A DNA stretch of 64,000 bases from Pseudomonadota bacterium (GCA_023426545.1 JAFAAN010000147.1:1836-65835), one strand, 5' to 3'. Shown: positions 4,850 through 30,303, counted from the first letter of the stretch. The notes: generated by a model not told the origin, from the letters alone. Program-made: numbers and translations.

Positions 4850-6277
<1,428 letters not shown>

Positions 6278-6358
6278 GATATCACGGGGGCCTCAGCTCA
6301 TGACGTTTGATGCCGCGTCCGGGGCGTGTTTGCCTGAGGGGGCGGGAGAGGAACGCAC

Positions 6359-10658: not shown

Positions 10659-11640
<982 letters not shown>

Positions 11641-11651
<11 letters not shown>

Positions 11652-13749
11652 CCTGCTCCTGGAAGTGGGCGCCGAGGAGATTCCGGCGTCGTTCATCGGC
11701 CCCGCGCTGGAGGACCTCCAGCGCATCCTCTCCGAGCGCATGGCCGAGGCCCGCCTCCAGCACGGCGAGGTCCGCACCTTCGGGACGCCCCGGCGCCTGG
11801 CCGTGTGGGTGAAGGACGTGGCGGACGCGGGCGAGGACATCGTCAAGGAGGTGCTCGGCCCCAGCGCCAAGGCCGCCTTCGACGCGCAGGGCAAGCCCAC
11901 CAAGGCGGCGGAGAAGTTCGCCGAGGGGCTGAAGCTCACGGTGGAGCAGCTCGGCCGCGCCACGACGCCCAAGGGCGAGTACGTGTCCGCGCGCGTGGAG
12001 GAGAAGGGCCGCCCCGCAGCGGACATCTTGAAGGACGCGCTGCACACGGCGGTGCACTCCATCAACTTCCGCAAGTCCATGCGCTGGGGGGACGTGGAGA
12101 CGTCCTTCGCGCGGCCGGTGCAGTGGCTGGTGGCGCTGCTGGGCGGTGAGGTGCTGCCCGTGGTGTTCGGCGACGTGACGAGCGGCCGCGCCACGCGCGG
12201 GCACCGCTTCCTCGCGCCCGGCGCCATCGAGCTGAAGGCCCCGGCGGACTACGAGACGGCGCTGGAGACGGCGCACGTGGTGGCGGACATCGCGAAGCGC
12301 CGCGCACAGCTCGTGGAGAAGGTGAAGGCGGCGGCGGCCAAGGCGGGCGCCCAGGTGCTGGAGGACGAGGCGCTGGTGGATCAGGTCACCAACCTGGTCG
12401 AGCTTCCGAGCCCGGTGGTGGGGACCTTCGAGGAGCGCCACCTGGACCTGCCCCCCGAGGTGCTGGTGCAGGAGATGAAGAGCCACCAGCGCTACTTCTC
12501 GCTGGTGGACGGCGCGGGCAAGCTGCTGCCGAAGTTCATCGCCGTGTCCAACACGCCGGTGCGCGACGAGCAGCTCAGCCTGCGCGGCTACCAGCGCGTG
12601 CTGCGCGCGCGGCTCGCGGACGGGCGCTTCTTCTTCGATGAGGACCGGAAGACGCCGCTCATCGACCGCGTGGAGATGCTGGGCCGCGTGGTGTGGCAGG
12701 GACAGCTGGGCAGCTACCTGGAGAAGGTGGAGCGCTTCCGGACGCTGGCCCTGTGGCTGGCGGAGCGGTCCGGCCGGGCAGGGGAGTCGGCGACCATCGA
12801 GCGCGCCGCCACCCTGGCCAAGGCGGACCTCGGCACCGGCATGGTGGGCGAGTTCCCCGAGCTCCAGGGCGTCATGGGCCGCGAGTACGCCCGCGCGAGC
12901 GGCGAGCCGGACGCGGTGGCCCTGGCCATCGCGGAGCACTACCTGCCCCGGGGCGCGGAGGACGCGCTGCCCACGCAGGACGCGGGCGCGCTCATCGGCA
13001 TCGCGGACCGGCTGGACTCGCTGTGCGGCATCTTCGCCATCGGCAAGGCGCCCACTGGCGCGGCGGACCCGTTCGCGCTGCGGCGCGCGTGCATCGCCAT
13101 CATCCGGCTGGTGCTGGGGCGTGGGTACCGCTTCAGCCTGACGGCCGCGGTGGACGAGGCGCTGCGGCTGCTCGCCCCGAAGGTCGCCAACGTCAAGCGC
13201 AAGGCGGGTGAGCCCGCGCCGCGCGAGCAGGTGCTGGAGTTCTTCCGCGGCCGCCTCAAGGCGCTGTGGGGCGAGCAGCACCGCACGGACGTGGTCGAGG
13301 CTGTGCTGTCCGCCGGCTTCGACGACCTGGTGGCCGCCCAGAAGCGCCTGGAGGCGCTGAGCCTCATCGTCGGGCGGTCGGACTTCCTGCCGCTGGCCGT
13401 GGCCTTCAAGCGCGTGGTCAACATCGTGGAGAAGCAGGGCCGGGACGTGCAGGGTGGGGAGACCAACCCCCAGAAGCTGGTGGACGAGCCCGAACGCAAC
13501 CTGCATGCCGCCTTCACGCAGGCCCGGAACACCGTGTCGGGGCTGGTGCGGGTGGACGACTTCTCCGGCGCCCTCCGGGAGATCACCGGCCTCAAGCCCG
13601 CCGTGGACACCTTCTTCGACAAGGTGATGGTGATGGCCGAGGACAAGTCCCTCCGGGAAAACCGCATCCGCCTGCTCGTGGAGATTGGGGCCCTGTTCAA
13701 CCAGGTGGCCGACTTCTCGAAGATCCAGGCCGAGACGGCCCCGGCCTGA
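11641..13749 (+). CDS. glyS: Glycine--tRNA ligase beta subunit
   Basis: It overlaps the glyQ stop by 11 nt. The N-terminus [14 protein letters not shown] is typical of GlyS. The protein is 702 aa and has the conserved [17 protein letters not shown] block. Confidence 0.96.
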
Positions 13750-13887: not shown

Positions 13888-15366
13888 ATGCGCGCCTACC
13901 TTCTTACCTCCGCGCTGCTCCTCGTGTCGTGCGACGTCGGCACCGAGAGCAAGCCCCCTCCGACCACCCGGCTCGTGTACCCGAGCGGCCTTGCCTTCTG
14001 GCGCCCCGAAGCAGGTCCGTCCACGAACGGATACCTGTACGTGGCGAGCGCCAACTTCGATAAGTGCTACGACTCCGGCTCCGTCGTCGCGCTGGACCTG
14101 GATGCGGTGGGGGTGAGGCCCTTCGGCGCGCCCTTCGACCCCGCGGAGCGCCTGCCCAACGACATCACCTCGCTGGGGATTGGCGCGCAGTCCTACGTGC
14201 AGATCGAGAGCTTCGCCGGAGAGATGGCGCTGTGGAGCCCTGCGGGGCGCCCGCCGCGGCTGTTCGTCCCGGCGCGCGCCGAGGGCAGCCTGCTCCACGC
14301 CATCGACGTGGGCGAGGACGGCCTCTCGCTGCGCTGCGTGCAGGGAGGCGAACGCGACTGCCGCGCCAACGCGCTGTCGCTGCTGGACGTACCCGGGGCC
14401 TCCAACGGGTTGCCGTCAGCGCCGGGCCCCCTGGGCGTGAGCGTCGCGGGAACCGGTGACGACGCCCGCGTCTGGGTGACGCACACGGAGCTGGCGGGGC
14501 CGGCGGCGGCCACCGCGGAGGCCGACCTGGAGGGCTACCTGCTCAACCTGCCGGCGGCGAATCCCACGCGGGACGCGCTCAACGTCGATGAGTTCGTGGT
14601 GCTCGGGACGAACGACCGGCTCTCCGGTGTCGCGCACGCGACGGCCATTGGCAGCCGGTACGTGTATGCCTCCGGGCGCAACTCGTCGTCGCCACGGCTG
14701 GGCGCGCTGCCGGCGCGCTTCATCCTGCGGCTCGTGGACCGGGCCAACCCGGGCCGGGTGCTGGAGACCGACCTGGAGCTGTCCTACTCGGTGCGCGAGG
14801 CGCGCGGCGTGGCGGTGGTCCAGACGGGCACGCGCACCCCCGACCCGGCCCTGCCGGAGCAGACCGTCGTGGACGAGCGCGTGTACCTGCTGGCGCGTGG
14901 CCCGGACACGCTGCTCGTGCTGGACGTGCTGAACGCGGCGGGCACCGCGCCCGACGCCGGGAACTTCCCCAGCGTGCGCATCGTGGCGGCGCTGCCCGTG
15001 CCCGCGGGCGCCAGCGAGCTGGAAGTGATTCGGCGCGGCGCGGGCCGGGGCAACCTGGTGGCGGTGACGGGCAGCGGTGACGAGGCCGTGGCGATCTTCG
15101 ACGAAGAAGTGGGGCAGCTCATCGCCCAGGTGCAGGTGGGCGACAACGACCCGAACAACCCCAGCCAGCCCTTCGGCCTGGCCGCGGACGTCCGCGGCAA
15201 CTCCGCCCGCATCTTCACCAGTACCTTTGGTGACGGCCGCGTGGCCATCATCGACATCCCAGACCTCGACCGCCCGCAGAATGCCCGGCTGGTGGCGAGG
15301 CTTGGCGCCCGGCAGGGGCGTGACCCACGCCAGGGCACCAGCCTGTGCCAGGAGACCTCCCCGTGA
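13888..15366 (+). CDS. Lipoprotein with beta-propeller-like repeats (first gene of the Tad-like module)
   Basis: ATG at 13888 gives signal peptide plus lipobox MRAYLLTSALLLVSCD. It has recurrent strand-rich blocks (YLYVASANFD, RLFVPARAEGSLLHAIDV, RVWVTHTE, RVYLLARGPDTLLVLDV, NLVAVTGSGDEAVAIFD, RIFTSTFGDGRVAIIDI) reminiscent of YVTN/YncE-type propeller blades. Confidence 0.7.
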   Translation: MRAYLLTSALLLVSCDVGTESKPPPTTRLVYPSGLAFWRPEAGPSTNGYLYVASANFDKCYDSGSVVALDLDAVGVRPFGAPFDPAERLPNDITSLGIGAQSYVQIESFAGEMALWSPAGRPPRLFVPARAEGSLLHAIDVGEDGLSLRCVQGGERDCRANALSLLDVPGASNGLPSAPGPLGVSVAGTGDDARVWVTHTELAGPAAATAEADLEGYLLNLPAANPTRDALNVDEFVVLGTNDRLSGVAHATAIGSRYVYASGRNSSSPRLGALPARFILRLVDRANPGRVLETDLELSYSVREARGVAVVQTGTRTPDPALPEQTVVDERVYLLARGPDTLLVLDVLNAAGTAPDAGNFPSVRIVAALPVPAGASELEVIRRGAGRGNLVAVTGSGDEAVAIFDEEVGQLIAQVQVGDNDPNNPSQPFGLAADVRGNSARIFTSTFGDGRVAIIDIPDLDRPQNARLVARLGARQGRDPRQGTSLCQETSP

Positions 15367-17429
15367 AGCGCAGCACCCTTGCCGCCCTGTGCGCGTGCGC
15401 CAGCCTGACCAGCAGCTGCTCCGAGACCGACGTCCGTTCGGGCTTCGCTGGCCTGTCCGGCACCTTCGACGTGACGCAGACCCAGGACTTCGTCTTCGTC
15501 ACGTCGTCGGACCGGGACGAGCTGCGTGTGCTCGACCTGGTGGCGAATCCGCGCGCCTTCGTGCCCGCGCCGAATCCGCTGCAGGCGCTGTCCATCCCCG
15601 TGCTGGACCGGCCCGACGCGCTCACGCGCGACGTGGCCTACAACGCGGCGGGAGATGACGTCCCAGGGCCCTACATCTACGCGCGAAGCTCGGGGTCGCC
15701 GGAGATCTCGGTGGTGGCCTCGGCGCGCGAGCTGCTGCGGCAGGTCGTCCGCCTCAAGGCGCCGAGCATCGTCACGGCGTTCTCCGCGCGCTCCCCGACG
15801 CCCGGCACGGACGAGCCGAGCACGCTGTACTACGCCATCCAGGACCCGGACGGCCTCTTCGACGCCGACACCGGAGGCGCGCGCGTCATCCGGCAGGACC
15901 TCCCGGGCCCCAGCGCGCTCCTGGCGGCCGAGCCCGCGCCGCTAGCGCCTCCGGTGACGGTGTTCTGTCTGCAGCCGGGTGAGTCCGTCCTGTCCATGAC
16001 GACGCTGGCCACGCCGGGACAGTTCGCCGTGGCCACGCGGCAGGCGTCGGGCCGGTCGGGCCGCACGCTGGTCGTCACCGACTCCGGTCCGGTCGCGGAC
16101 TGCCTCCAGCCCTCCACGCCCACGCTGGACGTGTCCGAGGGCTTCGGCAACGTGCCCGCCCGGCTCCTGGTGAGCCACCCCAGCACGGAAATCCCCAATG
16201 CGGGGTCCATCAACGCGGGGCGCTACCTCTTCGGCATCCGGGACGAGCTGGCGTGCGCCGGCGCCCGTGAATGCTCCGGCGTGCTCGCGGTGGACCTCGA
16301 GTCATCGCCGCCTGGGCAGACGGCGCGGGACCTCAGCGGCGCCCCGATGCTGCCCATCTACCCCCCGGGAGGTCTGCCCACGGGGCTCGCGTTGATGCCG
16401 GATGCGTCCCTGCGCATCACCCGCGACGATGGGTCGTCTGGCACCGTCACGGTTCCGCTGCTCGGCATCATGCCTTCGTCCAACGGCTACATCACGATGT
16501 TCTCGGCCAGTGACCTGCGCCAGTTCGACCTGTCGGCGGCCACGGCGCGCGCCACAGTGTCGCTGCGAGACAGCAACGAGGTGCCGCTGATCATCGAGAC
16601 GGCCGACCTCGTGACGGTGACCCAGGACCCAACGCTCCAGTCCACGGTGCTCTACGAGGGCTCCGTGCCCAACGCCTTCTTCCGCATCATCTACCAGGGC
16701 GGACTGCCGGGGCTGAACGGCCTGGCCCGCGACCCCGGGGATCCCCGTCGATTCGAGGCGGAGGCCGCCCCCGCGGCGAACGCGCGAGCGGGGGACATCC
16801 TGGTCCTGGAGAGCGCGGACATGCTCTGTGCCATCGACCTGCCCATCTCCGCGGTGGAGCCGGTTCCGGGCACGACCCGGGTCCGCTTCGCCATCGCGGA
16901 CTCGCAGGAGATTCCGGCCGACTGCGCCAACCTGACGCGCTTCACCGTGCGGGCGGGCGGCGACCAGCCCTTCGTCCTCTACAACGAGGCCGGTACATTC
17001 CTGTCGCGGGAGGTCACGGGGGCGTCGAGCTACAGCATCCCCACCGAGTACTTCTTCCATCCGGAAGGGTTCTACATCGACGACGACAACGACCCGTTGA
17101 CGCCGCCGGTGCCGAATGTCTCCCGCTTCCCCCAGCCGCCGCCTCCGCTGCACATCCGCGTGGTGGCCGTGGGACGTGAGCTGCGCCGGGGGGACCGCTA
17201 CGCGGTGACGCTGAACTCCGGGATCCGGAACTACGTCTTCACGCCGGACAACGCGGCGGGCACGGGGCTGGCCTTCTACACGTTGCCGGGGGCCGTGACG
17301 GGCTCTCAGCAGCGCAACGCCGAGCTCGCCTACATCGCCTACCCATCGGCGGATGGCATCCTCCAGCTCGGCCTGCCGGGGCTCACGGACAACCGGGCGC
17401 AGTCCCTGGCATTGGTTCCCTTCGAGTAA
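15363..17429 (+). CDS. Large lipoprotein, beta-propeller-like N-terminal region, unknown function
   Basis: GTG at 15363 lies 7 nt after GGAGA and overlaps the upstream stop (GTGA). The signal peptide plus lipobox is VKRSTLAALCACASLTSSC. It has the blade-like motif DFVFVTSSDRDELRVLDL. An alternative GTG start is at 15345. Confidence 0.7.
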   Translation: MKRSTLAALCACASLTSSCSETDVRSGFAGLSGTFDVTQTQDFVFVTSSDRDELRVLDLVANPRAFVPAPNPLQALSIPVLDRPDALTRDVAYNAAGDDVPGPYIYARSSGSPEISVVASARELLRQVVRLKAPSIVTAFSARSPTPGTDEPSTLYYAIQDPDGLFDADTGGARVIRQDLPGPSALLAAEPAPLAPPVTVFCLQPGESVLSMTTLATPGQFAVATRQASGRSGRTLVVTDSGPVADCLQPSTPTLDVSEGFGNVPARLLVSHPSTEIPNAGSINAGRYLFGIRDELACAGARECSGVLAVDLESSPPGQTARDLSGAPMLPIYPPGGLPTGLALMPDASLRITRDDGSSGTVTVPLLGIMPSSNGYITMFSASDLRQFDLSAATARATVSLRDSNEVPLIIETADLVTVTQDPTLQSTVLYEGSVPNAFFRIIYQGGLPGLNGLARDPGDPRRFEAEAAPAANARAGDILVLESADMLCAIDLPISAVEPVPGTTRVRFAIADSQEIPADCANLTRFTVRAGGDQPFVLYNEAGTFLSREVTGASSYSIPTEYFFHPEGFYIDDDNDPLTPPVPNVSRFPQPPPPLHIRVVAVGRELRRGDRYAVTLNSGIRNYVFTPDNAAGTGLAFYTLPGAVTGSQQRNAELAYIAYPSADGILQLGLPGLTDNRAQSLALVPFE

Positions 17430-17492
17430 CTGGGCGGGACTGGAGGGCTCTGGTATCGTCCGGGGCTTCCAGATTCACGCGAGTCAAGACCG

Positions 17493-18347
17493 ATGATCGA
17501 TCAGAACTCCCGTCCTGCCCGCAAGGTCGGTATCGCCGACCACTTGTGGGAGACGTTCGAAGACATGGCCCAGCAGATGGGCTCGGATCGCGATGCGCTG
17601 ATCAACCAGGCGCTCTTCATGTTCGCGCGCCTCAACGGCTTCCTCGAAGTGAAGTCCCGCTCCGAGGCCGCCGTCGCGCCCGTGGCCGCTGTCCCCGCGT
17701 CCGCGCCGGGCCGAGCGTCCGCGCCGCCCGTGCTGGCGCCGGCGCCCAAGCCGGAGCCCGCGCCCGCGCCGGCGCGTCCGCCCGTGCGTGCCACGCCGGA
17801 GGACCGCGCGGCCGCCAACGGCCTGGACAATGACCCGGTGCGCCGTGAGGTCGCCGAGCGCGTCCTGGAGACGGCCGCCGAGCTCGAGCGCCTCATCAAG
17901 GGCAAGAACAGCGAGCCGCCCCCGCCGGCGGACGACCTGCTCGAGGACGAGGAGGAGCCGCTCCCCGAGGCCGAGGATCCGGGCCTCATGGACGAGGAGG
18001 AGCCGCTCCCCGAGGAGGCCGAGGAAGAGCCCGCCGACGACCTCGCCGAGGAGGAGGAGGAGGAGGGTGGGGCGCTGTACCTCGTCACCGAGTCGGGTGA
18101 CCAGGAGCAGATCGTCAAGGACCGCTTCGTCATCGGCCGCGGCAAGCACTGCGACTTCGTCATCAACTCCGGCAAGGTCTCCCGCGAGCACGCCGTCATC
18201 GTCCGAGAGGGCGATGACTGGCTCATCGAGGACCTGGGCTCGTCCAACGGCACCTGGTTCAACAAGCAGCGCATCAAGCGCCGCAAGGTCGAGGACGGGG
18301 ACGAGTATTTCATCTGCAGCGAGAAAATCCGTCTCTTGATTCAATAA
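17493..18347 (+). CDS. Ribbon-helix-helix-like N-terminus, Pro/acidic linker and C-terminal FHA domain protein
   Basis: The C-terminal FHA is FVIGRGKHCDFVINSGKVSREHAVIVREGDDWLIEDLGSSNGTWFNKQRI. The N-terminus KVGIADHLWETFEDMAQQMGSDRDALINQALFMFARLNG has the strand-helix-helix pattern of CopG/Arc RHH proteins, which is an inference. Confidence 0.85.
   Translation: MIDQNSRPARKVGIADHLWETFEDMAQQMGSDRDALINQALFMFARLNGFLEVKSRSEAAVAPVAAVPASAPGRASAPPVLAPAPKPEPAPAPARPPVRATPEDRAAANGLDNDPVRREVAERVLETAAELERLIKGKNSEPPPPADDLLEDEEEPLPEAEDPGLMDEEEPLPEEAEEEPADDLAEEEEEEGGALYLVTESGDQEQIVKDRFVIGRGKHCDFVINSGKVSREHAVIVREGDDWLIEDLGSSNGTWFNKQRIKRRKVEDGDEYFICSEKIRLLIQ
17946..18015 (+). repeat. Perfect 25-nt direct repeat with 45-nt period inside the RHH-FHA gene linker
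   Basis: GACGAGGAGGAGCCGCTCCCCGAGG occurs at 17946-17970 and again at 17991-18015. Each copy encodes DEEEPLPE. Confidence 0.9.
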
Positions 18348-18359
18348 AGCGGTGACCCG

Positions 18360-18378
18360 AGCCCCGCCCCGCGGGGCT
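18360..18378 (+). terminator. GC-rich hairpin after the RHH-FHA gene (possible attenuator or terminator)
   Basis: AGCCCCG (18360-18366) pairs with CGGGGCT (18372-18378) around a 5-nt loop. It is followed by TCTGGTTGTT and lies 13 nt after the stop codon. Confidence 0.35.
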
Positions 18379-18442
18379 TCTGGTTGTTCGCCAATTGACG
18401 GCCTCCCGGCGTCCCTGGTTTGATGTCGGACGCCTGCCGCGA

Positions 18443-18994
18443 ATGGGACAGGCGCAGATGACGCCTGTTCAAATCGCGCTTTGGATGGTTCTCGGAGTGG
18501 CCCTCGTGATCTCGGTGGTGACGGATGTGCTTCGCCGCGAGATTCTCGATGTCGTCACTTATCCGCTGATGGCGGTAGGCCTGGGCGTGCGTCTCGCCAC
18601 CGAAGGGGTGGGGGACCTGGAGCAGGGACTCATCAGCGGGCTGGTGTCGGGGGTGGGGCTCGCGCTGCTGCTGCTGCCAGCGGCGCTGCGCGGGCGGATG
18701 GGGTGGGGCGACGTGAAACTGATGGGAGGGGTGGGCGCCGTGCTGGGATTCCCGGCGGCGCTCGCGGCGGCGGCCTTCATCTCACTGGTGGGGGCGCTGC
18801 AGGCCGTGGTGACGCTGCTCTGGCAGGGAGCGGCCTGGGACACACTGGCGGCGGTGGTGCGCCGGTGGGCGGTTCGTGTCCGGCTGGCCAGCGCGGACGC
18901 GCAGCCAGCGACCCAGCGCCACATCCCCTACGGAGTGGCCATTGCGCTCGGAACCCTCTGGGCACTGTGGTGGCAACACGGAACGTTGAGTTAG
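18443..18994 (+). CDS. cpaA: Type IV prepilin/Flp peptidase, A24 family (CpaA/TadV-like)
   Basis: It is a polytopic membrane protein with the two catalytic Asp contexts of A24 peptidases: VVTDVLRREILD and GWGDVKLMGGVG. The start is uncertain (TTG 18395, ATG 18443 or ATG 18458). Confidence 0.82.
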   Translation: MGQAQMTPVQIALWMVLGVALVISVVTDVLRREILDVVTYPLMAVGLGVRLATEGVGDLEQGLISGLVSGVGLALLLLPAALRGRMGWGDVKLMGGVGAVLGFPAALAAAAFISLVGALQAVVTLLWQGAAWDTLAAVVRRWAVRVRLASADAQPATQRHIPYGVAIALGTLWALWWQHGTLS

Positions 18995-19029
18995 CTCGGA
19001 TTTCTGGAAGAGAAGAGGGGACACGGACG

Positions 19030-20478
19030 ATGTTCACACGCATCACGCATGCCGCGGCGCTTGGCGCCCTCATCGCACTGGTGGCTGGCGGCAGCGCCCT
19101 GGCGCAGGATGGCACCACCGTCAGCCTCGGCGTGGGTTCCCAGAAGGTGATCACCATTCCGGGCCTCAGCCGCGTCGCGCTCGGTGACCCGAGCATCGCC
19201 GACGTGAAGACGCTGGGCTCCGGCCAGCTGCTCATCACCGGCCAGTCCGAGGGCAAGACGACGCTGCTCGTCTGGAAGTCCTCGGGGCAGCGTGTCAGCT
19301 ACCTCGTCGCGGTGCGCAAGCAGGACCCCAACGAAGTCATCACTGAAATCAAGCGCCTGCTCGGTGAAATCGAAGGTGTCTCCGTCCGCATGGTGGGTGA
19401 CCGCATCTACCTGGATGGTCAGGCCTACACCACGCAGGACGCCGACCGCATCGAGCAGGTGGTGGGCCTCTACCCGAACGTGAAGTCGTTCGTGAAGATC
19501 GCCCCCAACGCCAAGAAGCTGGTGGCCCAGAACCTCAACGCCGCGTTCCAGAAGGCCGGCCTGAAGAACGTCCAGGCCAACGTGGTGGGCGCGACCATCT
19601 TCCTGGAGGGCTCTGTGGAGAGCCAGCAGGACCTCCAGAAGGCGGAGCTGATCACCAAGGCCATCGGTGAGAAGGTGGAGAACCTCCTGGTGGTGGGCAT
19701 CAAGCGGATGATCCTCTCCGAGGTCCAGTTCGTGGAGATCCGCCGCAACAGCCGCGACCGGTACGGCATCCGCTACCCGACGGACATCACCGGCACCGCG
19801 ACGGCCATCTCCAACATCAGCCAGCAGCTCTTCCCGGGCACCTTCGGCTCGGGCGTGGCCACCATCGGCATCAACGCCTCCGCGGACTTCTCCTTCGGCT
19901 TCCAGGGCAACGATGGCTACGGCCGCCTGCTCGCGCAGCCCAAGCTCGTGTGCGCGAGCGGTGAGAAGGCGGAGTTCCTCGCCGGCGGCGAGGTGCCCAT
20001 CCCGCTCATCACCAACAACCAGTTCACGGTGGAGTTCAAGAAGTACGGCGTCATCCTGAACCTGCGCCCCACCGCGGACCGCAACGGCAACATCCAGACG
20101 GAGATCGAGGCGGAGGCGTCCGAGATCGACACGTCCGTGGCGGTGTCCTTCGGCGGCTCGGCGTCCATCCCCGGCTTCCGCACCCGCAAGGTGAAGACGA
20201 ACGTCACCGTGCGCCATGGCGAGACCATCGTCCTCTCCGGCGTCTTCAGCCACGACGAGCAGAAGTCCGTGTCGAAGATTCCGGGCCTGGGTCACATCCC
20301 CATCGTGGGCGAGCTCTTCAAGAGCCGCGGGTTCGACTCCACCAAGCGCGAGCTGGTGATCTTCGTCACCCCGCGCATCGTCAACCCGGACTCCGACAAG
20401 GTCCGCACCATCATCGAGGACGTGAAGAGCCGCTACAAGCAGGCCCGGTCCGAGGTGAACTTCAACATCTTCGACTGA
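19030..20478 (+). CDS. cpaC: Tad-type outer-membrane secretin (CpaC/RcpA-like)
   Basis: ATG at 19030 gives the signal peptide MFTRITHAAALGALIALVAGGSALAQD. It has a BON/pilus-formation N-domain (VITIPGLSRVALGDPSIADVK...LLITGQSEGKTTLLVW). The C-terminal secretin core is LAQPKLVCASGEKAEFLAGGEVP...IPGLGHIPIVGELFKS...ELVIFVTPRIV. Confidence 0.88.
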   Translation: MFTRITHAAALGALIALVAGGSALAQDGTTVSLGVGSQKVITIPGLSRVALGDPSIADVKTLGSGQLLITGQSEGKTTLLVWKSSGQRVSYLVAVRKQDPNEVITEIKRLLGEIEGVSVRMVGDRIYLDGQAYTTQDADRIEQVVGLYPNVKSFVKIAPNAKKLVAQNLNAAFQKAGLKNVQANVVGATIFLEGSVESQQDLQKAELITKAIGEKVENLLVVGIKRMILSEVQFVEIRRNSRDRYGIRYPTDITGTATAISNISQQLFPGTFGSGVATIGINASADFSFGFQGNDGYGRLLAQPKLVCASGEKAEFLAGGEVPIPLITNNQFTVEFKKYGVILNLRPTADRNGNIQTEIEAEASEIDTSVAVSFGGSASIPGFRTRKVKTNVTVRHGETIVLSGVFSHDEQKSVSKIPGLGHIPIVGELFKSRGFDSTKRELVIFVTPRIVNPDSDKVRTIIEDVKSRYKQARSEVNFNIFD

Positions 20479-20530
20479 GGCGGGCGTCCCGGGCGCCGCT
20501 CCAGCCGGGCCCTCGCGGGCCCCCGCATAC

Positions 20531-20568
20531 GGGCCGGCTTCCTCCCTCCTGGGGAGGGACGCCGGCCC
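20531..20568 (+). terminator. Long GC-rich hairpin downstream of the secretin gene
   Basis: GGGCCGGC (20531-20538) pairs with GCCGGCCC (20561-20568). An inner stem pairs TCCCTCC (20543-20549) with GGAGGGA (20553-20559). It is followed by GTCGGCTTTC. Confidence 0.4.
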
Positions 20569-20644
20569 GTCGGCTTTCAGGGCAAGCGTGCAACCTGGTT
20601 CTCACGCTTTGAGGTCGAAGGGGGGCTTGCTAGCATTCGTCCCC

Positions 20645-22435
20645 ATGTTTCTCATCACCCTCGCGGAAAAGGGCGGCGGGACCGAGCAGCGCGAGTACCA
20701 CAAGAATGAGGTCACCATCGGCCGTCTGCCGGGCAATGACATCATCCTCGCGAAGGGCAACGTCTCCAAGTACCACTCGCGGATCGTTGCCAAGGACGGG
20801 AAGTTCATCATCGTGGACATGAAGTCCACGAACGGCACGTTCGTGAACGGCAAGAAGATTGCCGCGCCCCAGGTCCTCAAGCCGACCGACCAGGTCTACA
20901 TCGGCGACTACATCCTCAACGTCGAGGCGCTGGAGGACGAGGGGCCGGTGATGACCCGCGCGGGCCAGCCGGAAGAGGAGTACTACGACGACCAGGGCGA
21001 GGAGGCCTACGACGAGGAGGGCCCCTACGAAGACGAGGAGCCCTACGAGGAGGAGGAGCCCTACGAAGAGGAGCCGCCTCCCGCGCCTTCGCCCAAGAAC
21101 ATGCCGGCGTCGCTGGCGTCGGCGCTGGCGAAGAACAAGCGCAAGGTGGACCCCCGCCAGGAGCGCTACACGCGCCTCCAGAAGGAGATCCACGACCGCC
21201 TCATCGAGTACCTCGACCTGCGCCGGATGGACATGGACCGGCTCGGCGACGACGAGCTGTGGCGGCGCACCGAGAAGGCCATCCGCGACATCATCGACCA
21301 GATGGAAGCGGATGGAGAGCTTCCGGAGGACGTGGACCGCGAGGAGCTGCTCACCGACGTCATCAACGAGGCGCTGGGGCTGGGGCCCCTCGAGGCGTTC
21401 CTCGCGTCGGATGACATCAGCGAGATCATGGTGAACCACGCCAACCAGATCTACATCGAGCGCAAGGGCAAGCTCACCCTGTCGGAGAAGACGTTCTCCT
21501 CCAACCAGGCGGTGCTCGGCGTCATCGAGCGCATCGTGGCGCCCATCGGCCGCCGCATCGACGAGTCCAGCCCGCTGGTGGACGCGCGCCTCAAGGACGG
21601 CAGCCGCGTGAACGCCATCATTCCGCCGCTGGCGCTCAAGGGGCCGTGCATCACCATCCGCAAGTTCAAGAAGGACTCGCTGAAGATCTCGGACCTCATC
21701 AAGTTCAAGACCGTCACGGCGCAGATGGCCGAGTTCCTGGAGATGTGCGTCAAGGCCCGGCGCAACATCGTCATCTCCGGCGGCACCGGCTCCGGCAAGA
21801 CGACGACGCTGAACATCATCAGCTCGTTCATCCCGGACGGGGAGCGCATCATCACCGTGGAGGACGCCGCCGAGCTGCAGCTGCCGCAGGACCACTGGGT
21901 GCAGCTGGAGAGCCGGCCTCCCAACCTGGAGGGCAAGGGCGCCATCACCATCCGCGAGCTGGTGAAGAACTGCCTGCGCATGCGCCCCGACCGCATCGTC
22001 GTCGGTGAGTGCCGCTCCGGTGAGACGCTGGACATGCTCCAGGCCATGAACACCGGTCATGACGGCTCGCTCACCACGCTGCACGCGAACACGCCGCGCG
22101 ACGCCATCGCACGGCTGGAGACGATGGTGCTCATGTCCGGCATGGAGCTGCCGGTGAAGGCCATCCGTGAGCAGATCGCCAGCGCCGTGCACATGATCGT
22201 CCAGCAGACGCGCTTCTCCGACGGCACACGGAAGATCTGCTACATCACCGAGGTGTCGGGCATGGAGGTCGACATCGTGACCCTCCAGGACATCTTCTAC
22301 TTCAAGCAGGATGGCTTCACGGAGGACCACAAGGTGCGTGGCCGCTACGTCGCTTCCGGCTTCGTGCCGAAGTTCTACGACGAGCTGCAGCGCAAGGGCA
22401 TCCCCGTCAACATGAGCATCTTCCGCGAGGACTGA
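20645..22435 (+). CDS. cpaF: CpaF/TadA-family secretion ATPase with N-terminal FHA domain and acidic E/P/Y linker
   Basis: The FHA is VTIGRLPGNDIILAKGNVSKYHSRIVAKDGKFIIVDMKSTNGTFVNGKKI. The ATPase core has Walker A ISGGTGSGKTTTLN, Asp box IITVEDAAELQL, Walker B-like PDRIVVGECR and His box GHDGSLTTLHAN. Confidence 0.92.
   Translation: MFLITLAEKGGGTEQREYHKNEVTIGRLPGNDIILAKGNVSKYHSRIVAKDGKFIIVDMKSTNGTFVNGKKIAAPQVLKPTDQVYIGDYILNVEALEDEGPVMTRAGQPEEEYYDDQGEEAYDEEGPYEDEEPYEEEEPYEEEPPPAPSPKNMPASLASALAKNKRKVDPRQERYTRLQKEIHDRLIEYLDLRRMDMDRLGDDELWRRTEKAIRDIIDQMEADGELPEDVDREELLTDVINEALGLGPLEAFLASDDISEIMVNHANQIYIERKGKLTLSEKTFSSNQAVLGVIERIVAPIGRRIDESSPLVDARLKDGSRVNAIIPPLALKGPCITIRKFKKDSLKISDLIKFKTVTAQMAEFLEMCVKARRNIVISGGTGSGKTTTLNIISSFIPDGERIITVEDAAELQLPQDHWVQLESRPPNLEGKGAITIRELVKNCLRMRPDRIVVGECRSGETLDMLQAMNTGHDGSLTTLHANTPRDAIARLETMVLMSGMELPVKAIREQIASAVHMIVQQTRFSDGTRKICYITEVSGMEVDIVTLQDIFYFKQDGFTEDHKVRGRYVASGFVPKFYDELQRKGIPVNMSIFRED
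21017..21070 (+). repeat. Imperfect micro-tandem repeat encoding (E)nPY units in the CpaF linker
   Basis: GAGGAGCCCTACGA-like units recur three times and encode EGPYEDEEPYEEEEPYEEE. Confidence 0.7.
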
Positions 22436-22442
22436 CGCGTCC

Positions 22443-24671
22443 ATGCCCACCCTGGTTGTCAAGCACCCCGACGGTACCGAGAACGAATACGCCATCGCGG
22501 GCGAGCTGAAGATTGGCCGCCAGCAGGGCAGTGACATCCTCCTCACCGAGGGCGGCGTGTCGCGCACGCACGCCCGCGTCTTCGAGGAGGGCGGCACCGT
22601 CTACGTCGAAGACGTGGGCAGTGCGAACGGCACCTTCGTGGATGGCAAGCGCATCATGGAGTCCACCGCGCTCACGCCTCAGTCGGAGGTGCTGCTCGGG
22701 GACTACTCGCTCCGGCTCAAGGCGGTCACCCGCAGCTCGGGCGCGCGGCGCGCGGCGCGGCCCGCGGCGGGCGCCGAGGACCCGGCGCCGGTCGGCGGAG
22801 AGGGTGGGGGCGTGCGCGCCACCCGGGCCATGCCCAGCATCAAGAAGGGGGCGGGCGCCGCGAAGGGCGCGGCCGGCTCGGAGCTGGCCAGGCGGCCGCG
22901 TCCGGCCCGTCCGGCGCCGGGGGGGAGCGCGGCTCCGGAGGCGGGCAGAGTCGGCCCGTCGCTGCGGGGCATGGTGGGCCCCTGGGCTGGCCAGACGTAC
23001 CCGCTCAAGGGCAAGGTGCTCGTGGGCCGCCAGCCGCCCGCGAACATCCTGCTGGATGATGACTCGGTCAGCCGCCGGCACGCGGAGCTCGAAGCCACCA
23101 GCGCGGGCGTGACGGTGCGCGACCTGGGCAGCGCCAACGGCACGCTGCTCAACGGCGAGCCGCTGGACCAGACGCCGGTGCCGCTGGAGCCGGGAGATCA
23201 GCTCCAGTTCGGTGTGGTGGAGATGGTCTTCGAGACGGACGCGTCGTCGGCGCCCGTGCGCCGCGGCGCGGGGGCGGGCGCTGTCCGGGGTGGGGCGGAC
23301 GAGGACCCCGCCGCGAAGCGCAAGAAGCTCATCATGGTGGCGGCCGCGCTGGTGGGCGTGCTGCTGATGGTGGGCATGGTGTCCTCCATCCTCAGCCCCG
23401 CGCCGGCGGACGTGTCGCCCGCGGGGGCGGGCGCGCAGCTGGACCCGACTGCGAAGATCCAGGAGCTGCTCAGCGAGTGCCGCTCCTACGCGTCCAGCGA
23501 GCTGGGCGCCCCCAACTGGGACAGGGCCAACGAGATCTGCACCCAGGCGCTGGACCTGGACCCCATCCACCCGGAGGCGAACACGCTCATCCGGCGCATC
23601 AAGCTGGAGAAGGAGTCCTTCGAGTACTACTCGCAGGGTGAGCGGCTGCTCCAGCGCCTCAAGCCGGAGGAGGCCCTGGCGTCGTTCCGGAAGATTCAGA
23701 AGGAGAGCGAGTACTTCCGCCGGGCCCGCGCCAAGGCGCGCGAGGCCGCCGAGGCGGTGACCAAGCGCGCGCTGGAGGACTGCAAGCTGTACCTGCGCGA
23801 CTCGCAGTGGAGCGCCGCCGTGTCGCGCTGCGAGGTGTACATGGCGGTGTGGTGCCAGTCGGTGCCTCGCGAGGAGCTGGAGCCCCCCCTGGGCTTCACC
23901 CTGAAGCTGGAGGGCCGGCTGCGCCGCAACGAGTGGCGGCCCAAGGAGCCGCTGTTCGTGCGCTTCCTCATCGCCCGGCAGCGCATGGACGCCAACGCGG
24001 CGCCGTGGGTGTGCCCGGTGGCGGAGGTGCTCGCGGGTGACGAGCGGGCCGTCGACCCGCGCACCATCGTCGCGGAGGCGGCGAAGCGGCGCTTCCCCAA
24101 CAAGCTGATGCAGGCCGCGCTGCTGGACTACTGGAGCGGCCGCGGCAGCGAGGCGCTCGCCACCATGCAGAAGCTGCGCGCCAACTACGAGGCCGCGCAG
24201 TACCACGCCCAGGCGGACGAGCTGATGAAGATCATGTCCACCGTGGACCAGCTCTTCAAGGTGGGCCAGAGCTACCTGGCGGCGGAGGACCCGGAGAAGG
24301 CCGCCGAGCCGTTCCGCGAGGCGCTGGCCACGGACAAGGCGCTGATGCAGGAGCTGGCCGAGTCCAAGCCGTCCTTCTACCGGCGCAACATCCTCCAGGA
24401 CTTCGCGGAGAAGTCGTACCAGCGCGGTAAGCACTGGGCCGACCGCGAGGACCACCGCCGCGCCTGCCGCGTGTGGAAGCTGGGCTTCAGCTTCTACGCG
24501 GGCAATCCGAACCTCAACAAGGCGGCGGCCTTCTGCTCCAGCCGTGCGCTGGAGGCCTTCCGGGCCGCCGGGAGCTGCGGCGACCTGACGATTGCGCTGG
24601 ACTTCGCCGTCAAGGGCGACGGCGTGGAGGAGAAGGTCATCGCGCGGCAGGAGGAGCAGGGCTGCAAGTAG
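22443..24671 (+). CDS. Bitopic membrane protein with two cytoplasmic FHA domains, one TM helix and a periplasmic helical/TPR-like domain
   Basis: FHA1 is LKIGRQQGSDILLTEGGVSRTHARVFEEGGTVYVEDVGSANGTFVDGKRI. FHA2 is VLVGRQPPANILLDDDSVSRRHAELEATSAGVTVRDLGSANGTLLNGEPL. The TM helix is LIMVAAALVGVLLMVGMVSSIL. The C-terminal half, about 400 aa, is helical-repeat rich. The start lies 8 nt after the cpaF stop. Confidence 0.88.
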   Translation: MPTLVVKHPDGTENEYAIAGELKIGRQQGSDILLTEGGVSRTHARVFEEGGTVYVEDVGSANGTFVDGKRIMESTALTPQSEVLLGDYSLRLKAVTRSSGARRAARPAAGAEDPAPVGGEGGGVRATRAMPSIKKGAGAAKGAAGSELARRPRPARPAPGGSAAPEAGRVGPSLRGMVGPWAGQTYPLKGKVLVGRQPPANILLDDDSVSRRHAELEATSAGVTVRDLGSANGTLLNGEPLDQTPVPLEPGDQLQFGVVEMVFETDASSAPVRRGAGAGAVRGGADEDPAAKRKKLIMVAAALVGVLLMVGMVSSILSPAPADVSPAGAGAQLDPTAKIQELLSECRSYASSELGAPNWDRANEICTQALDLDPIHPEANTLIRRIKLEKESFEYYSQGERLLQRLKPEEALASFRKIQKESEYFRRARAKAREAAEAVTKRALEDCKLYLRDSQWSAAVSRCEVYMAVWCQSVPREELEPPLGFTLKLEGRLRRNEWRPKEPLFVRFLIARQRMDANAAPWVCPVAEVLAGDERAVDPRTIVAEAAKRRFPNKLMQAALLDYWSGRGSEALATMQKLRANYEAAQYHAQADELMKIMSTVDQLFKVGQSYLAAEDPEKAAEPFREALATDKALMQELAESKPSFYRRNILQDFAEKSYQRGKHWADREDHRRACRVWKLGFSFYAGNPNLNKAAAFCSSRALEAFRAAGSCGDLTIALDFAVKGDGVEEKVIARQEEQGCK

Positions 24672-24716: not shown

Positions 24717-27443
24717 ATGGCCGACACCAGCCCCTCGCGCTCCGCGCCCACCCTGGTCCTCATCGACGCGTCCGGCTTCATCTTCCGCGCCTACCACGCG
24801 ATTCCCCCGCTCACGACGAGCAAGGGGGTGCAGACCAACGCCGTGCTGGGCTTCACGCGCATGGTGCTCAAGGCCCTGCGTGAGCTGACGCCCACGCACG
24901 TGGCGCTCGCCTTCGACAAGGAGAGCCGCACCGAGCGCCAGAAGATCGACCCGGCCTACAAGGCGAACCGCGAGGGCCCTCCGGAGGACCTCGTCCCCCA
25001 GTTCGCCCTCATCCGCCGCGTGGTGGAAGCCATCAACGTGCCCGTGCTGGAGGTCGCCGGCTGGGAAGCGGATGACGTCATCGGCACGCTGGCGATGAAG
25101 GCGAAGCAGGAGGGCTTCTGCGTCCAGGTCGTCACCGGCGACAAGGACTTCGTGCAGATTGTCGACGACGACGTGCGTCTGTACGACCCGATGAAGGACG
25201 TGCACACGCTGCCCGCGGACGTGAAGGCGCGGCTGGGCATCGAGCCGCGGCAGATGCGGGACTACCTGGCTCTCATCGGCGACGCGGTGGACAACGTCCC
25301 CAAGGTGCCGGGCATCGGCCCGAAGACGGCCACCGAGCTCATCCAGCAGTTCGGTGACGTGGAGACGCTGCTGGCGCGGCTGGACGAGGTGAAGAAGCCG
25401 AAGATTCGCGAGAACATCGCGTCCCACCGCGAGAGCCTCCAGCGCGCCAAGCAGCTCGTCACCTTCAAGACGGACCTGCCGCTGGACGTGCGCATGGCGG
25501 ACCTGGCCCGCCGGTCGCTGGACGCGCAGCGCGCGCGGGAGCTGTTCACCGAGCTGGAGTTCTTCGCGCTCCTCAAGGAGCTGCCGCAGCTCGAAGGCGG
25601 TCCGGGCGAGCCCGAGGCGGCGAAGGAGAAGCCCGCGCCCCTGACAGTGACGCCGCGGCTGGTGGGCTCGGACGCGGAGCTCGCCACCCTGGCCGGGGCC
25701 GTGCGCGAGCAGGGCGCCGTCACGCTCATCCCCGCGTACGAAGGCGCGCCCTTCGGCGCGAAGCTCGTCGGCGTGGGGCTGGCGCTGCCAGACGGCCAGA
25801 CGGCCTACGTGCCGCTGCGGCACGTGCAGCTCGGCGTCACCCAGGTGGCGCCGGAGTCCTTCACCGCGGCCTTCCGCGACGTGCTGGAGGACGCGGCCGT
25901 CAAGAAGGGGGGACACGACCTCAAGGCCTTGTTCCTGGTGCTGGCCAATGACGGCATCGCCCTGCGCGGCGTGCACGACGACGTGGAGCTGCTCAGCTAC
26001 CTGCTCAACCCCTCGCGCCGCGAGCACGCGCTGGTGGACCTGGCCCGCGAGCGGCTGCACACCGAGCTGCCGCCGCTGCCGCCCGCGGCGGAGGGCCGGC
26101 GCGGAAAGAAGGACCGCGCCCTCGCGGACCACACCGTGGAGGAGGTGGCCACCGGCTTCGCCATCCGCGCCGAGGCCGCCCGCAGGCTCGCCCCCGAGCT
26201 GTGGCGGGAGCTGGAGGCCGCGAAGCTGGCGGACCTGGCCCGGGAGCTGGAGCTGCCGCTGCTGCCGTTGCTGGCGCAGATGGAGCGGCGGGGCGTGCTG
26301 CTGGATACCGTCGAGCTGGCGCGCACCTCCGTGAAGGTGGACGCCGCCGTCGAGGCGCAGGTGAAGGAGGTCTACCGGCACGCGGGCCGCGAGTTCAACA
26401 TCGGCTCCAATCCGCAGCTCGTCGAGGTGCTCTTCACGGAGCTGAAGCTGCCCGTCATCAAGAAGGGGAAGACGGGCCCCTCCGCGGACCAGGAGGTGCT
26501 GGAGAAGCTGTCCGAGGAGCATCCGCTCCCCGCGGCCATCATCGAGTACCGCGGCCTGTCCAAGCTGAAGAGCACCTACCTGGACACGCTGCCCACGCTG
26601 GTGGCCGCCGACGGGCGCATCCACACCACGTACCACCAGGCCGCCACCGCCACCGGGCGACTGTCCTCCACCGACCCGAATCTCCAGAACATCCCCGTGC
26701 GCACGGAGCTGGGCCGGGAGATTCGGCGGGCCTTCGTGGCGGCGGAGGGGCACCAGCTGGTGAGCGCCGACTACAGCCAGGTGGAGCTGCGGCTGCTGGC
26801 GCACATCGCGGAGGACCCGGTGCTCATCGAGGCGTTCCTCCACGACGAGGACATCCACACCCGCACCGCCGCCGAGGTCTTCGGTGTGCCCACGGACCAG
26901 GTGGACCGTGAGCAGCGGCGCGTGGCGAAGATGGTGAACTTCGGCATCGCCTACGGCCTGTCGCCCCACGGCCTGGCCGCCCGGCTCGGCATCGCGCAGG
27001 ACGTGGCCCGTGACATCATCGAGCGCTACTTCACGCGCTACGCGGGCATCAAGCGCTACCTCGAGGAGACGGTCGAGCGGGCGCGAAAGACGGGCTACGT
27101 GGAGACGCTCTACGGCCGCCGCCGCTACATGGCGGACCTGAACTCGAAGAATCGCGGCGTGGCCCAGGCCGCCGAGCGCGCCGCCATCAACATGCCCATC
27201 CAGGGCACGGCCGCGGACCTCATCAAGAAGGCGATGCTGGCGGTGGACGCGGCGCTGAAGGCCCAGAAGCTGGGCACCCGGATGCTGCTCCAGGTGCATG
27301 ACGAGCTCCTCTTCGAGGCGCCCGACGCCGAGGTGGAGCAGGTGAAGGCCCTGGCCGTGCAGGCCATGTCCTCGGTGGCGAACCTCAAGGTGCCGCTCAA
27401 GGTGGAGGTCGGCGCGGGCCGGAGCTGGGCGGACGCGCACTGA
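24717..27443 (+). CDS. polA: DNA polymerase I
   Basis: The 5'-3' exonuclease N-terminus is LVLIDASGFIFRAYHA. The polymerase motifs are A (LVSADYSQVELRLLAH), B (RRVAKMVNFGIAYG) and C (LLQVHDELLFE). The protein is 908 aa. Confidence 0.98.
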   Translation: MADTSPSRSAPTLVLIDASGFIFRAYHAIPPLTTSKGVQTNAVLGFTRMVLKALRELTPTHVALAFDKESRTERQKIDPAYKANREGPPEDLVPQFALIRRVVEAINVPVLEVAGWEADDVIGTLAMKAKQEGFCVQVVTGDKDFVQIVDDDVRLYDPMKDVHTLPADVKARLGIEPRQMRDYLALIGDAVDNVPKVPGIGPKTATELIQQFGDVETLLARLDEVKKPKIRENIASHRESLQRAKQLVTFKTDLPLDVRMADLARRSLDAQRARELFTELEFFALLKELPQLEGGPGEPEAAKEKPAPLTVTPRLVGSDAELATLAGAVREQGAVTLIPAYEGAPFGAKLVGVGLALPDGQTAYVPLRHVQLGVTQVAPESFTAAFRDVLEDAAVKKGGHDLKALFLVLANDGIALRGVHDDVELLSYLLNPSRREHALVDLARERLHTELPPLPPAAEGRRGKKDRALADHTVEEVATGFAIRAEAARRLAPELWRELEAAKLADLARELELPLLPLLAQMERRGVLLDTVELARTSVKVDAAVEAQVKEVYRHAGREFNIGSNPQLVEVLFTELKLPVIKKGKTGPSADQEVLEKLSEEHPLPAAIIEYRGLSKLKSTYLDTLPTLVAADGRIHTTYHQAATATGRLSSTDPNLQNIPVRTELGREIRRAFVAAEGHQLVSADYSQVELRLLAHIAEDPVLIEAFLHDEDIHTRTAAEVFGVPTDQVDREQRRVAKMVNFGIAYGLSPHGLAARLGIAQDVARDIIERYFTRYAGIKRYLEETVERARKTGYVETLYGRRRYMADLNSKNRGVAQAAERAAINMPIQGTAADLIKKAMLAVDAALKAQKLGTRMLLQVHDELLFEAPDAEVEQVKALAVQAMSSVANLKVPLKVEVGAGRSWADAH

Positions 27444-27772: not shown

Positions 27773-28315
27773 TCAGTGCATTGCCGTACGTCCATCCCCC
27801 GTGTCCCGCGACACGCGCCGCGTCCGGGACGGGCGCTCGAAGTACTCGACGACCAGCCCACCAAAGGGCACCCGCGGCCCATCCGCCCGCGGGTCCTTCA
27901 TCCGTTGCAGGAGCGCCACCGCGGAGTCCACGGCCTCGTCGACCGCGCGGTTGATGCGCTCGCGCTCCCAATCCCCGCCGCCGAGCACCTCGGAGGCGTC
28001 CACCAGGCAGCGCCGCAGCGCCGCGAACTCGTCATAGAGGGCGCGCGCGCCCCGGTGCGGCGACAGGCGCAGCACCGCGCGCGTACGGCTCCAGGGGCTC
28101 GTCTCCTCGCCCGCGAGCGTCCGGCCCAGCTCGCGGATGAAGGGCTCCACCAGGTTGTCCAGCTGGGCGGGAAGGCCCTGCGGCGCGGCGGCGTCCGGCG
28201 CCGCCAGCACCATCCTCCGCCATAGCGCGGAGATTCGATCCGGCTGCTGGCGGAAGAACCTCGCCAGCACGGCTGCCTTACGTCCCCGCTCGCTCATGTC
28301 CAGTGCCTTCCGCAT
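27773..28315 (-). CDS. Hypothetical cytoplasmic protein
   Basis: This 180-aa ORF has coding-like composition and is convergent with polA. I recognised no motif. Confidence 0.5.
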   Translation of the reverse strand: MRKALDMSERGRKAAVLARFFRQQPDRISALWRRMVLAAPDAAAPQGLPAQLDNLVEPFIRELGRTLAGEETSPWSRTRAVLRLSPHRGARALYDEFAALRRCLVDASEVLGGGDWERERINRAVDEAVDSAVALLQRMKDPRADGPRVPFGGLVVEYFERPSRTRRVSRDTGDGRTAMH

Positions 28316-28478
28316 CGTTGACGGAGGTCAAAGCAATCTCGCTGCCAACGCCACCGGCGTCGCTGTCTCCAGTGAAATCAGCGGGTTGTCCGGGAGGGAG
28401 GGGCAGGCAGAGGGGCAGCGCGGCTGTAGAAACGACAGGGCCGCGTCTGTAGTCATGCCGGGGTGCGGGTGGCCACCC

Positions 28479-29687: not shown

Positions 29688-29775
29688 GTGCGGCGGCCTC
29701 ACGTTCCAACTGACATAACAGCCTCGTCCCCGGTTGCCGCAACCTCGGTCCACGCCACCGGATTGGCGCGGCGCG

Positions 29776-30303
29776 TCAGGAGTCGCCGTTGGCCTTCTTC
29801 TGGGACAGGTAGGCGATGTTGTCCTCGACCCGTGCGTAGTCGCGGTCCGCGAACGTGGGGGCCTTGAACGTCTCCAGCAGCTTCTGGTGGGCGTCCAGCA
29901 CCGAGCGCACCTGCGACTCGAACTGCGTGCGCTGGCGCTTCAGCTCGTTGATGTCCTCCACCACCTGGACCAGCCGCTGGTGGGCGCCGTGGACGATCTT
30001 CTCCGCCTGGTGCTCGGCGTCCGCGATGATGATCTCCGCTTCCTTCTTCGCGGCGTCCTTCAGGTCCTCGCTGATGCGCTGGGCGGTGACCATGGTCTCC
30101 TGGAGGGTGCGCTCCCGCTCCTGGTGCTGTTCGACCTTGAGCTGGGTGCGCTTCACTTCCTCCTTGAGCGCGATGTTCTCCTTCACCACCTCCTCGAACT
30201 CGCCGGCGATGAGCTCGAGGTAGGCCTCCACCTCACGGCAGGAGAAGCCGCGCAGGGCCGTTTCGAACCGCTTCTGCCGGATGTCGAGCGGGGTGATCTT
30301 CAT
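29776..30303 (-). CDS. DivIVA-domain protein
   Basis: The N-terminus MKITPLDIRQKRFETALRGFSCREVEAYLELIAGEFEEV is the canonical DivIVA lipid-binding/coiled-coil start. The remainder is coiled-coil. Confidence 0.88.
   Translation of the reverse strand: MKITPLDIRQKRFETALRGFSCREVEAYLELIAGEFEEVVKENIALKEEVKRTQLKVEQHQERERTLQETMVTAQRISEDLKDAAKKEAEIIIADAEHQAEKIVHGAHQRLVQVVEDINELKRQRTQFESQVRSVLDAHQKLLETFKAPTFADRDYARVEDNIAYLSQKKANGDS

Follow-up and report, generated by a model that had tools for sequence, protein, structure and literature searches.

The 64,000-nucleotide window analysed here (GCA_023426545.1 JAFAAN010000147.1:1836-65835, assigned to a Pseudomonadota bacterium; G+C content approximately 71%) contains a block of seven genes at positions 13888-24671. 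Sequence comparison makes it very probable that this block is the ortholog of Myxococcus xanthus kil gene cluster I in an uncultured Myxococcus, supplying the secretin, ATPase, peptidase and FHA scaffold of the Kil prey-killing machine. In M. xanthus, kil cluster I comprises MXAN_3102-3108, encoding two predicted outer-membrane lipoproteins, an FHA protein, KilA, KilC, KilF and KilD, while KilG/H, which form the platform, are encoded in kil cluster II (MXAN_4648-4661) together with KilB and the pilins (Seef et al. 2021 eLife, PMC8460266). Cluster I of DK1622 is located between glyQ-glyS and polA (2026 preprint). An earlier sequence-only reading of the window had described seven co-directional genes between glyQS and polA and had proposed a match to one half of the split M. 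xanthus Kil apparatus. To establish the gene content, we searched the large open reading frames (ORFs) of the 64 kb with Pfam (E<=1e-4) and the proteins of the block with NCBIfam. ORF calling gave seven co-directional + strand ORFs, all intact, and Pfam assigned domains to all but the first two. Comparison of the Pfam and NCBIfam assignments with the published table revealed that the gene content, order and orientation agree one for one with MXAN_3102-3108, and the glyQS and polA flanks are those described for DK1622. The proposed identity was borne out by domains and gene order, two comparisons that the sequence-only reading had suggested. The genes of the block and its flanks are as follows.

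13888..15366, + strand: lipoprotein 1, ATG start, ortholog of MXAN_3102
15363..17429, + strand: lipoprotein 2, GTG start, ortholog of MXAN_3103
17493..18347, + strand: FHA protein with a C-terminal FHA domain, ortholog of MXAN_3104
18458..18994, + strand: kilA, 178 aa, start taken from an M. xanthus deletion primer (the ORF is open from TTG 18395)
19030..20478, + strand: kilC, 482 aa, start and stop fixed by M. xanthus complementation primers
20645..22435, + strand: kilF, start and stop fixed by M. xanthus primers (the ORF is open from 20588, a GTG extension)
22443..24671, + strand: kilD, start from M. xanthus primers, two FHA domains (Pfam)
10659..13749, + strand: upstream flank, glyQ and glyS (Pfam tRNA-synt_2e, tRNA_synt_2f)
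24717..27443, + strand: downstream flank, polA (Pfam DNA_pol_A and 5'-3' exonuclease domains)

We further characterized the relationship at the nucleotide level by placing 19 published M. xanthus DZ2 primers, reduced to their genome-specific parts, on the window. Seventeen mapped in the expected collinear order with 0-3 mismatches, and the remaining two gave off-target matches only, with 3-4 mismatches. The matches were exact at the kilC start, the kilC stop, the kilF stop and for one internal kilF primer. The gene starts that have been used experimentally in M. xanthus map to approximately 18458 for kilA, 19030 for kilC, 20645 for kilF and 22443 for kilD. The window is not M. xanthus DZ2 or DK1622 itself, since most primer sites carry 1-3 mismatches and the N-terminus of KilD differs (MPTLVVK here, MATLVVR in DZ2). 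Nucleotide identity is 90-92%, with full collinearity, to M. xanthus AM003, Myxococcus sp. Y35, CA023 and M. vastator. At the protein level, the four nearest full-length Myxococcus loci (L001, L002, L003 and L005) show 96-98% identity in KilC and KilF, 94-97% in KilA, 85-89% in KilD, 84-87% in the MXAN_3104-like protein and 79-91% in the lipoproteins. Against proteins named M. xanthus, identity is 85% for KilD and 84-86% for the MXAN_3104-like protein. A protein (P0121) encoded on a 106,886-bp scaffold from an ENA metagenome matches KilD at 100% identity, and an exact-sequence look-up of KilF, with either start, returned no match. These comparisons identify the source as a metagenomic, uncultured Myxococcus close to the M. 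xanthus group.

The sequence-only reading had presented the block as a new candidate killing machine, and in this respect it was mistaken. The Kil system has already been characterized experimentally in M. xanthus; its split over two clusters, its richness in FHA domains and its two lipoproteins were published in 2021 and extended in 2025, and the block itself adds nothing new to them. A matching set of seven genes, arranged and oriented alike and with the same flanks and domains, has been described in M. xanthus (Seef 2021, PMC8460266; Herrou et al. 2025 Nat Commun, PMC12075869); the present block differs from it in species and in being known from sequence alone. The system was nevertheless named correctly by a reader that had only the sequence, and a further Myxococcus lineage, an uncultured one, is now seen to have the locus intact and collinear.

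To get a broader picture of its conservation, we scanned one genome per species and recovered 80 loci, all from Cystobacterineae genera or related metagenome-assembled genomes. The ten-gene order glyQ-glyS-lipoprotein 1-lipoprotein 2-FHA-kilA-kilC-kilF-kilD-polA was kept in every locus with enough flanking sequence. Identity to the proteins of the window ranges over 65-98% for KilC and 71-98% for KilF, and over 33-91% for lipoprotein 1, 26-81% for lipoprotein 2 and 32-89% for KilD. The lower ranges indicate that the accessory proteins evolve much faster than the core, lipoprotein 2 being the fastest-evolving gene of the block. Exactly four FHA domains were found in the entire window by Pfam, every one inside the seven-gene block, as the sequence-only reading had counted. 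In ortholog alignments, the positions that characterize an FHA domain (G-R, S-x-x-H and N-G-T) are retained by all four.

The peptidase, secretin and ATPase are the members of the block shared with Tad systems, and the sequence-only assignments of an A24 prepilin peptidase with both Asp contexts, a Tad secretin and an FHA-CpaF ATPase were upheld by Pfam and by conserved motifs. KilA is a short peptidase of the CpaA/FppA type (Peptidase_A24, E 2.5e-13). Across 51 orthologs, D23 is conserved in 98% and D85, in a GWGDVKL motif, in 100%; these two residues correspond to the presumed catalytic aspartates of the family. KilC contains T2SS-T3SS_pil_N, BON and Secretin domains, characteristic of a short Tad-type outer-membrane secretin, and profile searches, the only kind applied here, gave no Secretin_N/N0 match. 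A short secretin without N0 is a stated feature of KilC in M. xanthus (Seef 2021, PMC8460266). KilF has an FHA domain at residues 42-106 and a T2SSE domain at 263-556, and scores 322 bits against the TadA family in NCBIfam, placing it among the CpaF/TadA-family ATPases. An alignment of 80 orthologs shows its Walker A and Walker B motifs and its His box to be conserved. The FHA domain of KilF is separated from the rest of the protein by an acidic low-complexity linker at residues ~115-160 (20990-21130), which contains repeated Tyr-rich E-E-P-Y-E-E units.

The remaining Tad families are absent from the window. No Flp pilin, TadB/C, CpaB or TadZ/CpaE was found by Pfam among the large ORFs of the 64 kb, in agreement with the sequence-only reading, and the kilC-kilF gap contains no Flp-like small + strand ORF, only the upstream GTG extension of kilF itself. 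That only part of the Tad gene set is present locally might be taken to indicate a decaying, non-functional remnant whose other half has been lost. We consider this extremely improbable. All ORFs of the block are intact, KilC and KilF keep the identities given above across the suborder, Walker A/B, the His box and both peptidase aspartates are conserved, and M. xanthus has a working machine with its genes split in this way (PMC8460266). Neither the ATPase nor the secretin is a degenerate pseudogene, a possibility that the sequence-only reading had raised.

The same three components are bona fide Tad-family proteins, so that an ordinary Tad/Flp adhesion pilus, serving surface attachment or biofilm formation without a role in predation, also had to be weighed. 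Canonical Tad/Flp systems (Caulobacter Cpa, Aggregatibacter Tad, Pseudomonas Rcp/Tad with FppA) share with the block a short peptidase of the CpaA/FppA type, a CpaC/RcpA-type secretin with T2SS-T3SS_pil_N and a CpaF/TadA ATPase. In contrast to these systems, the Kil genes are split over several loci, and the block has no adjacent pilin, platform, CpaB, TadZ/CpaE, TadD or TadG. The window therefore does not contain a self-contained Tad locus, with no flp, tadB/tadC, cpaB/rcpC or tadZ/cpaE families among its large ORFs, and no tadD or tadG. The block further differs in the FHA domain on its ATPase, in its N0-less secretin, and in its extra FHA proteins and lipoproteins. Canonical Tad systems function in adhesion, whereas the published function of Kil is prey killing, and M. 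xanthus no longer kills prey when the locus directly orthologous to the block is deleted. An adhesion pilus without a predatory role is thus a very unlikely explanation. Kil-like clusters are also found in the predatory bacteria Bdellovibrio (Bd0110-0114) and Bradymonas, which have related KilA/KilC/KilF/KilG/KilH sets. Their gene arrangement differs from that of the block, and no KilD ortholog is given for them in the published homolog table (Seef supplementary file 2).

The steps of the Kil mechanism have been demonstrated in M. xanthus and are carried over to the present lineage by orthology. In M. xanthus, KilC, KilF, KilG, KilH, KilB and KilD are needed for killing (PMC8460266). Foci of NG-KilF and NG-KilD appear before movement pauses and the prey lyses, and the minor-pilin Tips 2-4 are matured by KilA. 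The Flp pilus that Kil polymerises from KilP has minor-pilin tips that can replace one another and that work together with a needle-less type III secretion system (published M. xanthus Kil work). KilD foci persist in mutants of the Tad core, for which an upstream sensing step has been postulated, with FHA proteins suspected (PMC8460266). By orthology, the block would supply the channel KilC, the FHA-fused motor KilF, the dedicated peptidase KilA and the FHA scaffold KilD, and other loci of the genome would encode the KilG/H platform, KilB, the major pilin KilP and the minor-pilin Tips. Once the cell touches prey, KilD and KilF would gather at the contact site, and KilF would drive polymerisation of the KilP Tad pilus through KilC. 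The pilus tips would hold and recognise the prey and, together with the needle-less type III system, would bring about the motility pause, prey plasmolysis and lysis. If bitopic, KilD could link what happens in the envelope to the FHA proteins of the cytoplasm, namely KilF and the MXAN_3104-like protein. Three modest refinements of the M. xanthus system that can be tested cheaply arise from the comparison: a probable inner-membrane span in KilD, a conserved Thr motif in the KilD linker as a candidate phosphorylation site and a conserved promoter-like block before kilA.

KilD consists of a first FHA domain, a linker, a second FHA domain, a hydrophobic segment (~296-318) and a Cys-rich, all-helical TPR-like domain (335-742). 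We aligned 44 KilD orthologs, among them sequences named M. xanthus and M. virescens. A strongly hydrophobic 19-residue window lies between the second FHA domain and the C-terminal domain in all 44 (Kyte-Doolittle mean 2.0-2.8), and its N-terminal flank is rich in Lys/Arg. The alignment contains 10 invariant cysteines, all C-terminal of the hydrophobic segment, with 0-2 cysteines on the N-terminal side. Since a conserved, putatively transmembrane segment precedes a domain with 10 invariant cysteines, the C-terminal domain is probably periplasmic. The most economical interpretation of these sequence features is that KilD is probably an N-in/C-out bitopic inner-membrane protein with a disulfide-bonded periplasmic helical domain, and this applies equally to the M. 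xanthus protein. The double-FHA, transmembrane and periplasmic organization proposed from the window alone is consistent with these data, the periplasmic location being the part that is probable. Two observations speak against this topology. The AlphaFold2 (AF2) model shows low confidence for the hydrophobic segment, which is not modelled as a helix, and KilD of M. xanthus has been labelled cytoplasmic in the literature (PMC8460266). The two FHA domains and the helical TPR-like domain (335-742) are themselves predicted with confidence.

The same architecture extends to distant relatives. An exhaustive search with the C-terminal domain of KilD returned 218 cluster representatives among 1.84 billion. 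Two FHA domains are present in ten of ten distant members (22-27% identity), and a single hydrophobic segment followed by a Cys-rich C-terminus was seen in 15 of 15, a set that includes those ten. When the full KilD model was compared with the PDB using Foldseek, the top 50 hits covered the FHA domains only, and the C-terminal fold was unmatched among them. The linker between the FHA domains is disordered apart from a short motif, R-A-T-R-A-M-P, at residues 125-131 (~22815-22835), which contains T127. The motif R-[AS]-T-[RK]-A-[ML]-P occurs in 41 of the 44 Cystobacterineae orthologs, and the Thr is kept in a variant motif in 2 more; a strict pattern search did not find it in the distant homologs. 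We infer from this conservation that T127 is a candidate phosphothreonine site.

The layout predicted for KilD, in which a single transmembrane segment joins a cytoplasmic FHA part to a periplasmic domain, is also that of SctD (YscD/PrgH), GltG and the type VI secretion proteins TagH/Fha. The FHA domains of KilD match the Yop-YscD_cpl profile, and residues 174-343 score 23.1 bits against SctD (TIGR02500, NCBIfam), for which the cut-off is 86. Unlike SctD, KilD has two FHA domains with canonical FHA positions, and its predicted periplasmic part is all-helical, Cys-rich and TPR-like, whereas that of SctD is formed by ring-building alpha/beta modules. With a score so far below the threshold and a different periplasmic fold, KilD falls outside the SctD family. 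In M. xanthus, killing depends on KilD, which is recruited to the sites of contact with prey (PMC8460266). A speculative extension, which we put forward tentatively and regard as rather unlikely to hold in full, is that KilD may act as an SctD-like bitopic scaffold. Its periplasmic domain would read or bridge to KilC, KilB, the lipoproteins or the T3SS*, and its FHA domains together with T127 would form a phosphothreonine switch recruiting FHA-KilF and the MXAN_3104-like protein. If so, KilD would be the missing transducer of prey contact upstream of Tad assembly, in M. xanthus as much as here.

The third gene of the block encodes the MXAN_3104-like protein, which had been read as a fusion of a ribbon-helix-helix (RHH) domain to an FHA domain. 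The FHA half of this assignment stands (Pfam, residues 213-271). Among 38 orthologs, the N-terminal ~50 aa are nearly invariant, a second invariant helix lies at 114-138, and the linkers are acidic. The linker at residues ~150-190 (17940-18070) is of strongly acidic low complexity and varies in length among the orthologs. The AF2 model contains an extended stretch, helices at 16-29 and 33-47 (predicted local distance difference test, pLDDT, 68-86) and at 115-137, and the FHA sandwich. The strand-helix-helix pattern of the modelled N-terminus is compatible with an RHH fold. The searches gave the RHH half no support: Pfam returned no RHH match for the N-terminus even at E<=10, only the FHA part matched the PDB by sequence profile or, among the top 50 Foldseek hits, by fold, and BLASTP produced no alignment to CopG, for which an approximate sequence was used.

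The first two genes encode the lipoproteins, as predicted, and the two overlap at a GTGA (15363-15366), in which the TGA stop of lipoprotein 1 runs into the GTG start of lipoprotein 2. Lipoprotein 1, from the ATG at 13888, has a signal peptide ending in the lipobox LVSC, and the signal peptide and lipobox Cys of lipoprotein 2 are conserved in 19 orthologs. Both had been described as beta-propeller-like. Lipoprotein 1 has no match in Pfam or NCBIfam; its homologs are named 'YncE family protein' by NCBI, and its profile matches one blade of PDB 1l0q (E 2.5e-5), which gives indirect support to a probable beta-propeller of the 'YncE family' type. The description does not carry over to lipoprotein 2 in our searches, since its profile has no match in Pfam, NCBIfam or the PDB, and a beta-propeller there rests solely on the published InterPro 'YWTD' label of MXAN_3103 (PMC8460266). 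The sequence-only reading had also held that canonical Tad biology leaves the accessory proteins of the block without an explained role. For KilD the published requirement in killing and recruitment to prey contact say otherwise. For MXAN_3102-3104, no deletion phenotype was found in the searched literature.

The place of the lipoproteins bears on the extent of the machine, as distinct from its identity. It is possible that only kilA-kilC-kilF-kilD, perhaps with the MXAN_3104-like gene, belong to it, and that the lipoprotein genes are neighbours transcribed with glyQS that serve another task in the envelope; we give this a little under an even chance. The regulatory DNA bears directly on this question, and two elements lie in the 110-nt gap (18348-18457) before kilA.

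18359..18379, + strand: GC-rich hairpin with a 9-bp stem, just 3' of the stop of the FHA gene, at the opening of the gap
18395..18424, + strand: sigma-70-like promoter candidate, TTGACG (18395-18400), 18-nt spacer, TTTGAT (18419-18424)

A hairpin occupies this position in other genera too, with different stem sequences, and is a possible terminator or attenuator. In the promoter candidate, TTGAC and TTT..T do not vary among 13 loci that represent at least 6 genera, and the neighbouring intergenic DNA diverges. The TTG at 18395, the formal ORF start of kilA, is part of this promoter-like block. A strict consensus scan did not pick up the block, whose -10 hexamer lacks A at position 2. Terminator-like sites in the region are no more frequent than in shuffled sequence (6 versus 5.4), and neither the promoter nor the terminator consensus counts are raised; the block before kilA is therefore singled out only by its conservation across genera. 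This conservation suggests that it is likely the promoter of a separate transcription unit, kilA-kilC-kilF-kilD(-polA). Such a unit fits the operon prediction for M. xanthus, in which glyQ and glyS are co-transcribed with the two lipoprotein genes and the kilA-kilD unit includes polA (2026 preprint). The seven-gene module may thus be a 4-5 gene operon plus neighbours.

Besides the conserved block directly before kilA, a bystander role for the lipoproteins is favoured by the scan for terminators, which found no terminator-like site between glyS and lipoprotein 1, and by the searched literature, in which no deletion of MXAN_3102-3104 is reported under these locus tags. Two further points count against including the lipoproteins in the machine. 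The predicted operon that joins their genes to glyQS is said not to be part of kil (2026 preprint), and synteny does not demonstrate functional linkage, given that the housekeeping genes glyQS and polA keep their position equally well in the 80 loci. We accordingly rejected synteny as proof that the lipoproteins belong to the machine. In favour of their inclusion, MXAN_3103 was detected by liquid chromatography-tandem mass spectrometry (LC-MS/MS) in purified M. xanthus outer membrane along with KilC and KilB (PMC3222651). The lipoproteins also evolve fast, like KilD, and their detected homologs are limited to the suborder that has this Kil arrangement; for lipoprotein 1, all 128 detected homologs are from Cystobacterineae.

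Outside the block, the region upstream of glyQS carries two Pkinase genes (3467-4846 and 8281-10611), in the orientation of the block. Three Hanks-type kinases had been reported there; a dedicated search found no third. Genes for a cyclic-nucleotide-binding protein (6903-8102) and a TPR protein (15-1751) are also located upstream of glyQS on this strand, and nothing ties these genes or the kinases to the kil block. A hybrid histidine kinase at 47569-49905, with dCache sensor, HisKA, HATPase and receiver domains, is likewise unrelated to it. Large + strand ORFs (481-833 aa) without a Pfam match at the threshold used are found at 1860-3461, 4865-6310, 28137-29867, 40892-43393, 55109-56845 and 56924-59227. 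Some of these may be spurious in DNA this rich in G+C and others may encode uncharacterised myxobacterial proteins. Near the window end, one ORF on the - strand (62375-63988), which may continue towards that end, matches the C-terminal part of EutB followed by EutC, which suggests a fused ethanolamine ammonia-lyase.

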